Shown here in pieces: positions 3,432 through 62,096 of a DNA stretch of 64,000 bases. Position 1 is the stretch's first letter. Each line of letters opens with the position of its first letter. The notes under the pieces are model-generated. The model did no database searches, was not told the DNA's origin, and worked only from the letters and a program-made list of their open reading frames with translations. The translations under genes and the position numbers were made by a program. The stretch is from Octopus vulgaris (lineage: Eukaryota), in NCBI GenBank assembly GCA_951406725.2, contig OX597822.1, forward strand, positions 111,786,001-111,850,000. The letters are read 5' to 3'.

Positions 3432-3608
3432 CTTTATTTAAAAGCAGCAGAAATATACTAAGAGCTGTTACTCGGTGTTTCACGTTCCCTTGAAACTCCG
3501 AGTAACAGCTTTTGTTATATTTCTGCTGCTTTTAAATAAAGCATATACCTCTGGTATTTGAGTACTCTTTTTTTTCCACCTTGTTTCACATTTATGTGCT
3601 TACTCCGG
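3432..3608 (+). mobile_element. Truncated Penelope-like/retrozyme-type terminus forming a ~51-bp-arm hairpin
   Basis: Inverted repeat 3432-3482/3491-3541; each arm has GAAAC-(T/A)CCGA-GTA, a hammerhead 3' half; flanked by (TA)n. Confidence 0.55.
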
Positions 3609-3632
3609 TATATATATATATATATATATATC

Positions 3633-3928
3633 ATGTGACTGATCACGTAACTGACCAGTCTACTAGATGCTGCTACACATCGCTGATCACAATGCGCTTT
3701 GAATTGTTTTGGCCTTCAAATGGCGCCACCCCACTGGCTAAGTGAGCAGGCCAACAGAAGAAATAGTGAGAGAATGTTGTGGCGAAAGAGTGCAGCAGGA
3801 ATCGCCACCACCCACTGCCGGAGCCTCGTGGAGCTTTAGGTGTTTTCGCTCAATAAACACTCACAACCGCCCGGTCTGGCAATCGAAACCGCGATCCTAC
3901 GACCGCGAGTCCGCTGCCCTAACCACTG
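3633..3928 (-). mobile_element. tRNA-Arg-like SINE, family B head with an alternative RTE-like tail (probably OR1/OR2 type)
   Basis: 3770-3928 matches the head of 13236-13620 and 62097-62480; the tail differs and resembles the RTE 3' end at ~14110-14165. Confidence 0.8.
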
Positions 3929-4266
3929 TATATGTATATATGTGCATTCCAACCATGGTTCTATGTGTGTGGGTGTTACGTTATTGATTGTCACTAGCTT
4001 CATTAAGCTATTGTTTAGAAAAGAAAATATACATTTGGTAGGGAATAATTTCATTCTGTTATTGTACTTGATCCCCATACATTTCACATACTGTGAAACA
4101 TATTTCTAACTACCAATAGTTCATTGCTGAATGGGGTACACGTCCCACAGAGTGCATACGAAGTTGTGTATAAGTTTTCTGCGACTACCTGCTGATTGTA
4201 CAAATGAAACAGAAAACTTGAAAATGATACTGCCTTATGCTGTTATATATCAGCATTGTAGATGTA

Positions 4267-5602
4267 TTAGGTTGACAATTAAGTTGCTGTCGTTTTTGAA
4301 AAGTTAAATTTTTTAAATGGTTTAATAAGAAATAGTAAATAATTAATCAAGAATGTATTCACCCTTGTTGTTTACAACTTCATCTCAACGTTCAACAAGA
4401 TTTTGAATACCTCGTTGGTAAGAAATCACCCGATTTCGACTCGAAACATTGATCCAACCACGCTCTCAGTTCTGCTTCAGAATTGAAAGAAACTCTGCTC
4501 ATAGCATTTGAAAGAGATCGAAAGGGGTGGAAATCCGTTGGTGCCAAATCAGGAGAGTACGGCGAGTGTGGCATCACTTCCCAATTATGCGTTTGAATGG
4601 CTTCCTTGGTCATATTGGTGACATGAGAGCGGGTGTTGACGTTCAGAAGAAGAGCTCTATGCTGACGATTAGGTCTTTTCTCTTGAATTGCCTTGTTGAG
4701 TCGTTCGATCTGCTGAACATAGAGTTCCGCGTTGTCCGTTTGGTTCCGTTCAAGCAATTCGTAAAAGATAATCCCTTCCCAGTCCCACCATACTCACAAC
4801 ATCGTTTTACGCGTATAAAGATCTTATTTTACGCGCGGTGTCGCTTGTTTACCGGGGCTAAGTCATTCCTTACGCTGCTTCATATTGATATATAGGCACC
4901 ATTTTCGTCGCCAGTAACGATTCGATAAAGAAATCGTTGCTTGTGTCCATGAGTTGAGCGGTGACGCGCAAGCAAACCAGCGGAGATTGTGGCTCGTTGA
5001 TTTTTGCTGTTGTCACTTTAAAGCACGCAGAACTCATGCTCCATACTTCTGAACCTTTCCCATCGGGTGAAGATGCTTCTTTATAGCAGTGTGGGAGCGT
5101 TCCTCTTTCTCTGCCAGTTCCCTTGTCGTTTGACGAGAATTTTCGTGCAAAAGTTGGTTTAATAGCTCTTCATCGAACTCAACTGGATGTTCAGACCGAG
5201 GTGCGTTTTTGAGGTCAAAATTTCCATTTTTGAACTTGGCATACCAATCACGAGCGATTCTTTCAGCAATGGCCCCCTCTCCATACACAGCACAGATGTC
5301 GCGAGCAGCTTTTGCGGCCTAAGAACCTTGACTAAAAGCAAAAAAAGAAGGTGACCTGAAAATAAACAAAAATTAAATAGAATTAACTGGAAAAAACAAA
5401 CAAACAAAATAAATTCCAAAATGATTCAAAAATGGAATTCTCAAAATATCTATATATCTATCTATCTATATATATATATATATATATATATATATATATA
5501 TATATATATATATATATATATATATATATATAGATTCCAAAATTTAAAAATGCAATAAATTCAAAAATTTTTAATACGTCGGGAACTTAGTTGGCAACAC
5601 AA
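4267..5602 (-). mobile_element. Degenerate full-length mariner (DD34D) transposon
   Basis: Transposase pieces on minus strand: WYAKFKNG (HTH region), IVTGDE (~4905-4922), HSPYSPDLAPTDF; frameshifts; imperfect ~28-bp TIRs flanked by TA at both ends. Confidence 0.92.
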
Positions 5603-59110: not shown

Positions 59111-60756
59111 TTTTCTCAGAAGTCAGAACATGAAACGTTGAAAGATGAAAGAAAAATAGCAAATAATAAATTAAGGTGCTTGGTTTATGCCCTTATGCCA
59201 AATTTTGTTAGACCCCAGTCACATGAAATATGATTTACTTGGTATATATTTACACTGATTTCTTTTTCCATCGTTATCTTCCTTAAAGGATAGTTCGGCA
59301 TTTGTATTTTCAATTACACAATGCAATTGTCTTGAAGGCTTAAAAAAGTTATGCAACGATATAACAATGCGTGTATCCGTTTGATATATAATGTTTGCAT
59401 TCGAAATTTGTGAACTAGCATGTTTTTTGAAATGTTATATTCTATGAAGAGTCTTTATCCAAAAGTCTGCATTCACATGCGTATCTTGGAGATATACAAA
59501 GAAGCATAATTTGATATGAATGTTGATGTTTTATTATTGTATTTCTAAATGACTAAGCAACATCAATATTCCCATGTTACATAATAGCATTTTTGATCAT
59601 TTGTTAGATCAAAGGAATGAAGTACACTTTTTGTAATAGTATACTTTCATCATTAGCAATATTCATTCTGACGCTACTTGAGACAAATGGAAATGACGTT
59701 TGAAATATGTGTGCTTTTCACTTTGTATATCTTTTACTATCTACCACTATGAAACCACTTTGATAATATTCCATGCAATTTTCTCACACACATCAACATA
59801 ATGTACAACTTTCAAGAAAGAAAATGAATTTTTTTCAGGGGTAATTGGAATGTAATGGGATATATTTTATAATACTATTGCAGAGTGCAGATTGTTCTTT
59901 TACGTTATGAATTTACAAATTTACACTTGTTTATACCACTGGGATGGAGAGGCATCACGTGCAATGAAGTGACCATCCTGAGTCTCAGGAAACAGAACAT
60001 TATTTTCAGTCCGTTCTCACGAAACAGGTCAGATGCAACTTACTTCAGTAAGAATGCTAACCAACAGCAGATTCCACACGACATTTGACTGAATGATTGA
60101 AGAAAATATTTCTGACGTTATCATTGGGACCCTGCACATTTCATCAGGCAAATCTACATATTTCATCAGATACCCCATTATCAATTTACTTTCCAGGACC
60201 AATTTCGATAAAAGTGTTTACCTTGATCTATTCAATGTTTCGATGTTGGCTAGTGATTAGTTATTAATGCCATAATGAATTGCAGCATTTTTAAGTAACT
60301 GTACTTCATAAACACCAGTCTCTTGCGCAAATGGGATATTACTATGTGTCAACCAAAATTATCCTTTCACAAGAAAGATCCCGATTAGTGAAATAACAGC
60401 AAGCAAGTCAGCCTGCGATAGCATGAGTGATTAAAATGTTTTATAGCGCAGCGAGTTCAGTCACACAGCAGCTACACGATTACACCCAACTATTGCTAAT
60501 GAATAATCTTTGACAATATGTTGGGTGAAAATTCCATTCTTAACAAGACTTGTGTATCTCCTGCCTGCTGTCTTATAATAAGCCGTCATGATTTTGTATT
60601 CGTTAAGTGCTTAAGCTGCCGGTAACCCGGCTTTGATGCATATCCTAGATGACATAGTAACAGTACCCTTCACTCAAAACTTTCTCGTATACATGTACAC
60701 ACAATAATACACATAGTTATATATATATATATATATATATATATATATATATATAT

Positions 60757-61087
60757 GCTCAGTGGTTAGAGCGTCGAGCTTACGATCGTGAGGTTGTGAG
60801 CTCGAATCCCGGACCGGGCTGCGTGTTGTGTTCTTGAGCAAAGCACTTTATTTCACGTTGCTCCAGTTCACTCAGCTGTAGAAATGAGTTGCGACGTCAC
60901 TGGTGCCAAGCTGTATCGACCTTTGTCTTTCCCTTGGATAACATTGGTGGCGTGGAGAGGGGAGGCTGGTATGCATGGGCGACTGCTGGTCTTCCATAAA
61001 CAACCTTGCCCGGACTTGTATCTAGGAGGGTAACTTTCTAGGTGCAATCCCATGGTCATTCATGACCGAAGGGGGTCTTTACCCTTT
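60757..61087 (+). mobile_element. tRNA-derived SINE family D
   Basis: A box GCTCAGTGGTTAGAGC, B box GAGCTCGAATCCC, conserved GTGTTCTTGAGCAA..CACTT block, CTTTACC tail; inserted in (TA)n. Confidence 0.85.
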
Positions 61088-61275
61088 ATATATATATATA
61101 TATATATATATATATATATATATATATATATTGTATAATTGTATATATATATATATATATATATATATATATATATATATAAGGGAGAGTTTACGAAACA
61201 AACAACAAAAGACGAAGACAGGTGGTGTACAAAACAAACAGATGTATTAGTATAACGCTCAGGAATAGAAAAAGT

Positions 61276-61311
61276 CTTTTACGTTTCGAGGCTACGCTCT
61301 TCTACAGAAAG
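61276..61311 (-). ncRNA. Minimal hammerhead-like motif (CUGUAGA variant)
   Basis: Minus strand: CTTT-CTGTAGA-A-GAG cgtagc CTC-GAAAC-GTA-AAAG; in repeat 61181-61390 abutting (TA)n. Confidence 0.55.
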
Positions 61312-62096
61312 GGACACAGAAAAAAGCAAGGAGAGAAACAAGGAGAGAAGAAATAATGTGTGTAGTGGCTACCGATCTATCATGGCGACTGTGTGTGTGT
61401 GCATGTATGTATGTATGTATGTATATATGCTTGTATGTACATATAAAGCATATGTACACAAATATATAATCAGAATATATATATATATATATATATGTGT
61501 GTGTGTGTGTGTGTGTGTGTGTGTGTGTGTGTGTGTGTGTGTGTGTGTGTGTGTGTATATATCGTACATCAAAAACTGATTATCTTTTCGCAAAGCAATT
61601 TTCTCTTTTATGTTTTGTTTTGCATAAATCGTTAAGTGACGCTATTCGATGGTGCAATATTGTTTTAAATTGCAATCGACGATTAGCTTAATTAGAAAAT
61701 GCCATATATTTTGTACCTCAAACGTTTCTGATACACGTTTATCTAAGTTAAATCATATTTTAATATTACTTTGAGTCTCACGTGTTAGCAAACCTAACAT
61801 TGTAATTGAGCGTTTCAAAATAGAATAAAGCGACAGAAAAACCAAATAATGCCTCTACATTTGAAGGTAATCGATTAATCAGTGATTTTACAATACAAGC
61901 ATCAGGTGTGTGTGTGTCTATGTTATCGTCTTTGTATGATACTTGTATACGTTTGCGCGTCTTTATGTAATTTTATGAAACATTCTATTTCTATAAAGTA
62001 TCTTCGTTTTTGTGAGTGGGTTTGTTGTAAATTGATGTTGTTCGGTATAATGTTTATATATATATATCCATGTCCTTTAGATTTCTAATTGATGGA

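Follow-up and report, generated by a model that had tools for sequence, protein, structure and literature searches.

Hammerhead motifs in the window

The window, a 64-kb stretch of Octopus vulgaris DNA, carries type-I hammerhead motifs within short insertions of several repeat families, designated here by letters. Motifs were sought with a strict descriptor that required CYGANGA, GAAA and UH, at least 3 bp in each of stems I and II, and a palindromic or paired stem III; it gave eight matches against a mean of 0.05 and a maximum of 1 in 60 local dinucleotide shuffles. They were located at 28267-28330, 29188-29233, 44540-44574, 50935-50969 and 51118-51208 on the minus strand, and at 28391-28454, 29714-29759 and 51403-51493 on the plus strand. 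Five of the eight had a U4C core, a known natural variant of the hammerhead core.

An earlier note on this DNA had listed 11 complete motifs. Their coordinates and strands were right, and the core CUGANGA...GAAA...UH with three helices and ends in stem I was present in 8 of the 11. The remaining three proved defective under the strict descriptor: in motif 31410 core position 9 is a C and stem III is not palindromic, motif 61276 has a U at core position 6, and motif 46916 has a private stem I mismatch that is not found in most copies of its family F. Because the pairs 28265/28388, 29188/29714 and 51118/51403 are each the two arms of one insertion, the 11 motifs amount to 8 insertions of 7 families. 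The earlier description of these families as unrelated and minimal held in part: seven families do occur among the 11 motifs, but D (44540 and 50935) and G (61276) align with each other (74% over 76 nt, E-value 2e-6), and minimal hammerheads were found in D, F and G, whereas B has canonical helix sizes (stem I 6 bp, stem II 4 bp) and in A and E stem II is long and the palindrome measures 8 nt. The sites noted as partial (3470/3492, 11440 and 22461) are 5'-truncated copies of families in which other copies have kept the 5' core. No hammerhead was found among the Rfam matches listed (150 of 220), a search that is uninformative for these forms.

Grid tiles totalling 400 kb contained 18 motifs, against 0.6 in 10 shuffles; the window, with 8 in 64 kb, is thus richer than the genome average, yet it is not special. 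Exact patterns counted genome-wide gave 26,617 matches versus 223 and 37,655 versus 2,770 for reversed-pattern controls, and about 77,000 motifs above control overall, in agreement with the large scale proposed before.

Families E and C: end repeats of coding elements

Family E occupies 51.1-51.6 kb as a short-tail arm at 51086..51307 (minus strand, hammerhead 51118-51208) and a long-tail arm at 51315..51649 (plus strand, hammerhead 51403-51493), respectively 98.7% and 98.8% identical to a 4678-nt unit at another locus (L149). This identity marks family E as the end repeat (pLTR) of a Hydra-clade Penelope-like element (PLE), of which an intact copy lies elsewhere in the genome. The L149 unit has a 981-codon frame, 954 codons from its ATG, with the motifs RW[K], DKT, YRDD, CxCx5C, CxxC and CxH. 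DKT, CxCx5C, CxxC and CxH are given as marks of the Hydra clade by Craig et al. 2021 (PMC8557442), and in a motif comparison with that source RWK, DKT, the CxCx5C linker, the endonuclease CxxC/CxH and the (TA)n target were all present. A hammerhead lay at most 1.1 kb upstream in 24 of 50 Hydra-type RT loci, 23 of these hammerheads being of the long class.

Family C consists of a pLTR arm at 31313..31607 on the minus strand (motif 31412-31451, A9C core, non-palindromic stem III) and an inverted arm at 31601..31705 on the plus strand, which is tail only and contains the first 30 codons of the parent frame. The pLTR arm is 91% identical to a 4598-nt unit (L469) with a 1312-codon ORF between two C motifs, by which family C (31.4 kb) is identified as the pLTR of an intact RT/GIY-YIG-type element. 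It had 3,349 exact matches genome-wide, and one 339-nt tandem has (TA)n at its junction.

Judged by motifs, RT and a GIY-YIG endonuclease are joined in a single ORF in the parents of both E and C, and remnants were found for G. The hammerheads lie inside pLTRs, and the partial tandem forming these pLTRs, the inverted 5'-truncated arm and the one-end tail of PLEs were also present. Pfam returned no match for the E and C parent proteins and sub-threshold RT and GIY-YIG matches only for a Neptune-type parent protein; a PDB search with the E parent protein gave no match, and the C protein was likewise unrecognised there. Since Pfam and PDB gave no significant match, the identity of the parents rests on motifs, mutual blastp (E-values 1.7e-8 and 5e-4) and database relatives. 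A Cx2-5CxxC linker was present in both parent proteins of the Neptune/C side, and three lineages separated in a quick RT tree with long branches and without named references. The clade of the parents of D, G and C may be Neptune or Nematis.

Families D and G: a probable Neptune-type lineage

Family D is represented by a longer copy at 44441..44943 with a CA-rich upstream part (minimal U4C hammerhead at 44540-44574) and a short copy at 50826..51041 (minimal hammerhead at 50935-50969), both on the minus strand. Family G, at 61182..61390 on the same strand, appears to be the 3' end of a Neptune-type PLE lineage and has a minimal hammerhead with an A6U core at 61276-61311. Family D (5,807 exact matches genome-wide) shows 75-81% similarity to the pLTR of an intact Neptune-type PLE family, and endonuclease remnants lie upstream of 9 of 75 G copies. 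D and G, which resemble each other, probably belong to a Neptune-type lineage; their stems I differ by a compensatory pair. As a long upstream extension was present in just 2 of the 55 D copies retrieved, family D may be partly non-autonomous. A D copy upstream of a Hydra ORF (L256) was considered as the end of that element and rejected as a neighbour insertion absent from three sister loci. The view of D and A as fixed-length SINE-like units was only partly true, as longer copies exist.

Family B: a retrozyme

The left arm of family B (29025..29545, minus strand) has about 1.4 units of 364 nt with a canonical-size, U4C-core hammerhead at 29188-29233, and the right arm (29544..29986, plus strand) has one unit with its hammerhead at 29714-29759 and an 80-nt tail, and ends in (TA)n. 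Non-coding 364-nt tandem units, each with an intact type-I hammerhead, place B among the retrozymes (units of 150-400 nt), whereas A, C, D, E and G are pLTR fragments or solo elements. By this structure B is the only retrozyme among the seven families, most of the others being likely PLE ends. The units are young (98-99% alike), and the hammerhead is predicted to fold (stem I P 0.88, stem II P 0.97). No coding remnant was attached to the B arms, PLE fragments at L005 and L015 lying in their flanks, and B shared no stretch with six autonomous 5' regions. The possibility that B arms start at the cut site was also considered and is unproven: several 5' ends lie just past this site, but an internal inverted repeat blurs the boundaries. 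Contigs from four presumed-RNA runs cover parts of family B, with no joints or ends visible.

Families A, F, H, I and J

Family A (361 exact matches) comprises a long-tail arm at 28054..28367 (minus strand, hammerhead 28267-28330 with the 8-nt palindrome) and a short-tail arm at 28350..28595 (plus strand, hammerhead 28391-28454), the latter being a short form whose 5' leader is fixed. In 7 of 30 copies the AT-rich sequence upstream was longer, reaching at least 600 nt in one; no ORF lay within 1.5 kb of any fetched copy. Family F, an element of about 190 nt that usually follows (AAT)n, lies at 46825..46997 on the minus strand, in this copy with the stem I mismatch; it is at times arranged in 188-197-nt tandems and had 2,232 exact matches. 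Family H forms two back-to-back arms at 3427..3631 (minus strand 3427-3489, plus strand 3491-3631); each breaks off within the hammerhead and lacks the CUGANGA half. Of 6 further H copies encountered incidentally, 5 had an intact motif. The old 5'-truncated copy of family I (11230..11468, minus strand) and the family J fragment (22418..22499, plus strand) each retain just the 3' half of a hammerhead with a long stem II; 5 of 11 other family I copies passed a relaxed descriptor, and other J copies have CUGAGGA upstream. No coding parent was found within 1.5 kb of copies of A, F, H, I and J; motif shape only assigns A, I and J to the Hydra type. Of the parents with PLE RT and GIY-YIG ORFs that the earlier note had suggested looking for, intact ones were found for E and C, remnants for G, and none for A, B, F and H.

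Stem covariation and predicted folding

Family-specific stems with compensatory support had been proposed and were recovered. When stem partners were swapped between 22 motif clusters, a rough grouping that merges D-like and G-like motifs, only 12% of stems I and 19% of stems II still paired, and stem I changes in step along RT-defined Hydra relatives. Compensatory stem changes were thus present among related elements, copies inside young families being near-identical and uninformative. Stem III had a predicted probability of at most 0.02 in monomers of all 11 motifs, and its palindromes were predicted to self-pair in 10 of them. The strong conservation of the core argues that the motif matters at some step, a point against the view, set out below, that it is merely carried along.

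Insertion shape and a possible mechanism

Insertions of families A, B and E are built from a pair of diverging 5'-truncated arms, whose ends fall at two fixed positions, mostly in (TA)n. Arms end at +41 and +162 after the cut site in E, at +144 and +228 in A, and at unit positions 25 and 80 in B. Both orientations were present in 12 of 23 E and 19 of 25 A insertions. These insertions run through the cleavage site and do not end at it. No insertion in the window has two copies on the same strand, which precludes a cis dimer or a circle in every case.

The type-I hammerheads of the window are, as the data support and as had been suggested, of the PLE and retrozyme kind, in PLE pLTRs (E, C) and in one retrozyme (B). 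With a probability of roughly 0.8, the motifs lie in pLTRs of several PLE lineages and in one retrozyme, and the window copies are short insertions whose likely authors are Penelope-type enzymes encoded by intact copies elsewhere in the genome, cleavage probably not being needed. The mobilisation in trans foreseen earlier fits this reading, with protein made elsewhere and intact E and C parents in the genome. A system of ribozyme-based mobile RNAs that is separate from elements with ORFs does not: E and C are pLTRs of autonomous elements, G has its upstream endonuclease remnants, and D is close to an intact Neptune-type pLTR.

By analogy with the PLE of the anole (PMC11167929), the enzyme would nick both strands of an AT-rich target, and each nicked end would prime reverse transcription, which would start downstream of the hammerhead at either of two sites within the RNA. 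The RNA template would be uncut at the hammerhead or, for B, possibly religated, and the position of the hammerhead immediately upstream of these sites would account for its being carried along. Cleavage is probably poor, taking place in a dimer via the palindrome or with protein help, and is probably not needed for insertion. In the Anolis Poseidon element, hammerhead mutations left insertion in vitro unaffected (PMC11167929).

Alternative explanations and altered cores

Relaxed descriptors gave a mean of 1.55 chance matches per shuffled window, as would be expected if the motifs were chance matches in AT-rich repeats; this reading is refuted, to near certainty, by the shuffle and reversed-pattern controls given above, both in the window and genome-wide. 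It is also improbable that the majority of families are retrozymes in their own right, non-coding RNAs that cut themselves and form circles, with circles as the main mobile form. Such elements exist in mussels, where retrozymes of 350-390 bp make circles (PMC7229834), and B, a young non-coding tandem with a well-folding canonical hammerhead and arms crossing the cut site up to twice, as well as the tandems of F, would be compatible with it. However, E, C and G have links to coding elements, no tandem was seen in 25 insertions of A, and the B arms are equally explained by uncut multimeric RNA.

A separate question is posed by families G and C, in which the conserved A6 and A9 are replaced. U6 was found in 15,884 of 16,498 exact matches of G (A6U), and C9 in 95 of the 100 matches listed of C (A9C). 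These altered-core families reached thousands of copies, in line with cleavage not being needed for insertion. Among 22 G copies found by their 3' flank alone, U6 was present in all, and polymorphism fell mainly on N7 and H17, the two free hammerhead positions; mean column agreement was 0.93 in the motif versus 0.77 and 0.85 beside it. Tentatively, a Neptune-type PLE lineage may have kept U for the invariant A6 across many subfamilies and more than 15,000 copies under a constraint like that of a working hammerhead. A6U would then be a new active natural core, rescued by protein or dimer, or PLEs would select the fold as a protein-binding RNA and not as a cutter; if so, the octopus genome would amount to a mutational scan of the PLE hammerhead carried out by nature. 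It is possible to a similar degree that the G and C motifs are dead relics whose fold is not under selection and which spread only by sitting in active elements; this would leave the rest of the interpretation unaffected. Activity is low in a natural A6C variant (PMC3088659), C has no palindrome (predicted self-duplex +0.7 kcal/mol), no folding is predicted for the G monomer, and C is one young family and hence gives no constraint signal; against relics speak the variation pattern of G and its compensatory stem I pair relative to D.

Comparison with known systems

The hammerheads of metazoan PLE pLTRs described by Cervera and de la Pena 2014 (PMC4209133) resemble those found here: a genome has many families of them, most motifs are single and derive from truncated elements, motifs on opposite strands form pairs 100-700 bp apart, an extra nucleotide follows A9, stem III is palindromic and the stems covary. 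Their counts are in the thousands (about 9,000 in Xenopus, about 4,000 in coelacanth) versus roughly 50,000-120,000 here, obtained with different descriptors, and the A6U and A9C cores do not seem to be among the variants in its text. Hydra-clade PLEs (PMC8557442) include Hydra-1_Obim of Octopus bimaculoides, with a listed hammerhead, and share with E the DKT, CxCx5C and CxxC/CxH motifs, the (TA)n target, the inverted 5'-truncated arm and the one-end tail. Family E differs in its 4.7 kb length with an Asn-rich linker, the published elements being mostly below 3 kb, and has a longer loop on stem II and a longer tail (about 120 nt); this genome also contains at least five further intact Hydra-type families.

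Family B resembles metazoan non-LTR retrozymes (PMC7229834; Li et al. 2026, 10.64898/2026.07.22.740005) as a 364-nt non-coding tandem with a canonical-size type-I hammerhead beside autonomous PLEs, and differs in its U4C core and in two-armed PLE-type insertions with two fixed ends; it is one of seven families here. Poseidon of Anolis (Frangieh et al. 2024, PMC11167929) likewise has an AT-rich target, two RT start sites that define the tail and an uncut RNA template, and its tail overlaps the ORF start, as in family C. Its mechanism comes from in vitro work, whereas ours is deduced from insertion shape in other clades.

Conclusion

The basic picture of hammerheads in PLE ends is already in print, and the overall kind of system is known; its unusual part is the A6U and A9C cores. 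The words ribozyme, hammerhead and retrozyme are absent from a 2026 O. vulgaris repeat annotation, and PLE ends could account for many of the short octopus repeats that are listed as unclassified. The hammerhead is nearly universal in canonical PLEs and cleaves poorly, and insertion did not require it in the single system studied in vitro. Available in this genome are intact young elements of three lineages and a retrozyme with the same insertion footprint, and its high-copy families with canonical, U4C, A6U and A9C cores allow the need for cleavage to be tested with matched natural constructs.

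Hammerhead motifs and other repeats of the window

A script descriptor recovered eight strict type-I motifs at positions where the earlier note had placed hammerheads, whereas 60 dinucleotide shuffles, done block-wise, gave 0.05 on average. Allowing one core mismatch raised the count to 15 (chance mean 1.55), with 31412 and 61276 among the gains. The other five matches to this relaxed descriptor, at 6825, 19205, 24894, 31256 and 39472, are absent from the earlier note. The motif at 46916, previously described as complete, passed the descriptor only with stem I relaxed; the pair concerned is intact in most copies of its family.

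Three motif pairs proved to be the two arms of a single inverted insertion each, so that the 11 motifs come down to 8 insertions. These fall into seven families: A (28.1-28.6 kb), B (29.0-30.0 kb), C (31.4 kb), D (44.5 kb and 50.9 kb), F (46.9 kb), E (51.1-51.6 kb) and G (61.3 kb). The earlier estimate of at least seven unrelated families stands for the number of families among the 11 motifs but not for their unrelatedness, since D and G are related. Truncated copies of real families account for the sites regarded as partial, namely H (3470), I (11440) and J (22461). The reported lack of a Penelope-like element (PLE) ORF in the window was also borne out, coding sequence of this kind being limited to 30 codons of family C.

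Other repeats were also present. From its motifs, we take the open stretch at 4392-4793 (-) to be a mariner-type transposase fragment, and the region 14127-15331 (-) presumably contains LINE reverse transcriptase (RT) fragments, near-identical ones of which recur at other loci. Decayed non-LTR coding remnants, by eye of restriction-like and AP endonuclease types, occupy 33144-33937 (+) and 53324-53881 (-). A very abundant SINE-like repeat forms an inverted pair (89-94% complementary) at 45812-46687 and has many further copies in the window.

Families associated with coding PLEs

Both window arms of family E matched a 4678-nt tandem unit at 98.7-98.8% identity; the 981-codon frame of this unit displays RT motifs and marks of the Hydra clade, with a GIY-YIG-like region at the C-terminal end. 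Relatives of the N-terminal 273 residues of this protein were many, with long open frames; among 50 E-related loci, some of them overlapping, a hammerhead was found at most 1.1 kb upstream in 24, and 23 of these hammerheads combined a long stem II with an 8-nt palindrome. The covariation previously proposed for the stems was recovered here, stem I changing in pairs among E relatives as RT identity drops from 100% to 45%. In family C, the window copy has an inverted arm of its own and matched, at 91% identity, the end of a 4598-nt unit; the open frame in this unit spans 1312 codons (YVDD, Cx4CxxC linker, GIY-YIG-like region). The family C protein was 99% identical to a database entry named Octopus vulgaris, and one distant relative gave an RT score of 5e-15. 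The E and C proteins had no match in Pfam, nor did the E protein in PDB. Pieces of family C and Hydra-type ORFs also occur in two octopus gene predictions (P0041 and P0059), one under the name dynein regulatory subunit and the other under ankyrin protein; this would be either exonised PLE sequence or annotation error.

Endonuclease remnants of Neptune type were located 700-900 nt upstream of family G, on the same strand, in 9 of 75 copies. Family D showed 75-81% similarity to the end repeat (pLTR) of an intact family that is young and has a frame of 1008 codons; most D copies start no more than about 100 nt from the core, longer upstream sequence being found in 2 of 55 fetched copies and in the window copy at 44.5 kb. 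We assume the label 'Neptune' for the G/D lineage from motifs, and the quick tree made of PLE proteins has long branches. A very young high-copy PLE family (loci L076-L087; 6.2-kb unit, open frames of 884-1008 codons) carries a stem I mismatch in its own hammerhead. In a Hydra-type family (L257-L259), stem II contains an insert of more than 80 nt, and some 620 nt separate the hammerhead from the ORF downstream of it.

Short and non-coding families

In its short form, family A has a fixed leader; longer AT-rich upstream sequence is present in 7 of 30 copies. Family F (about 190 nt) is placed after (AAT)n and sometimes in tandem, and family B is a non-coding 364-nt unit in tandem and inverted arrangement, with 98-99% identity among the best 40 of 2,275 candidates. 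No parents of A, B, F or H were found.

Genome-wide abundance

The host genome totals 2.80 Gb, spread over 227 contigs. A grid sample of forty 10-kb tiles contained 18 strict motifs, distributed over 12 tiles and five of them within one array, versus 0.6 in shuffled tiles (10 shuffles), which scales up to a genome total of ~1e5. One tile yielded a retrozyme-like array (L312:5979-7390) of five ~353-nt units with a canonical-size hammerhead. Exact patterns retrieved 26,617 short-class motifs (223 in the reversed control), 37,655 long-class motifs (2,770) and 15,884 motifs with U at core position 6 (A6U; 0 in the control), in sum about 77,000 above control, these patterns scoring sequence and not stem pairing. 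Both stems were present in 62.5% of 128 distinct pattern strings from fetched loci, versus 0 of 9 in reversed controls. A genome total of 50,000-120,000 motifs seems a reasonable range. Published figures are more than 6,000 hammerheads in 16 families for a coral, about 5,000 for a mussel and up to 120,000 retrozymes for axolotl (PMC7229834), and about 9,000 hammerheads for Xenopus (PMC4209133).

Insertion footprint and putative mechanism

Relative to the predicted cut site, arms ended at +41 or +162 in family E and at +144 or +228 in family A, while those of family B ended at unit positions 25 or 80; both orientations were represented in 12 of 23 insertions of E and 19 of 25 of A. The same inverted arm and one-sided tail are described for PLEs (PMC8557442), and in vitro work on a PLE explains them by nicks in the two strands together with a pair of internal start sites for RT (PMC11167929). 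Because the arms run through the cut site, the RNA template would have been uncut or religated, in copy sets that were selected for carrying the motif and thus under-sample arms stopping at that site. Folding predicted no stem III in monomers (11 of 11 motifs) and self-pairing palindromes in 10 of 11 (-3.7 to -12 kcal/mol), both of which would be in line with the dimer model. As window pairs sit on opposite strands, such a dimer would not arise within one transcript. Taken together, these observations suggest that PLE protein may be supplied in trans, that the template RNA would remain uncut and that the hammerhead may be a passenger of the pLTR.

Known features and variant cores

The location of hammerheads in the pLTRs of PLEs has been reported, as have numerous families within one genome and pairs on opposite strands (PMC4209133); an octopus Hydra PLE with a hammerhead appears in the supplement of PMC8557442, and retrozymes have been argued to be PLE derivatives in a 2026 preprint (10.64898/2026.07.22.740005). 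As judged by the titles listed, no genome-wide study of cephalopod hammerheads or retrozymes was found in the literature; a term search of PMC13282606 returned none of the relevant words.

In family G, 15,884 exact matches had U at position 6, compared with 614 that had some other base, and the first 30 U6 loci had A (7), C (5), G (5) or T (13) at position 7. Retrieval by the 3' flank alone gave 38 copies, and all of the 22 counted, which retain the 5' flank, had U6. Across the 36 columns of the motif, variation among these 22 was greatest at N7 and H17, both free in the hammerhead consensus, an outcome with a chance of 1 in 630 (naive) or about 1 in 40 with loop 2 counted as free, for copies that are not independent. 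Family C, whose parent is intact, lacks the palindrome and carries C at position 9 in 95 of the 100 matches listed, from a total of 3,349. Low activity of A6C and sufficiency of U4C in a viroid were reported by Perreault et al. (PMC3088659), and the main text of that report makes no mention of A6U. A literature search on hammerhead A6U listed two papers, both on other subjects, and Lunse et al. 2016 and the preprint and PMC4209133 supplements may hold such variants. The motifs of the window are real and of a known kind, present at unusual density in this octopus and with one testable variant.
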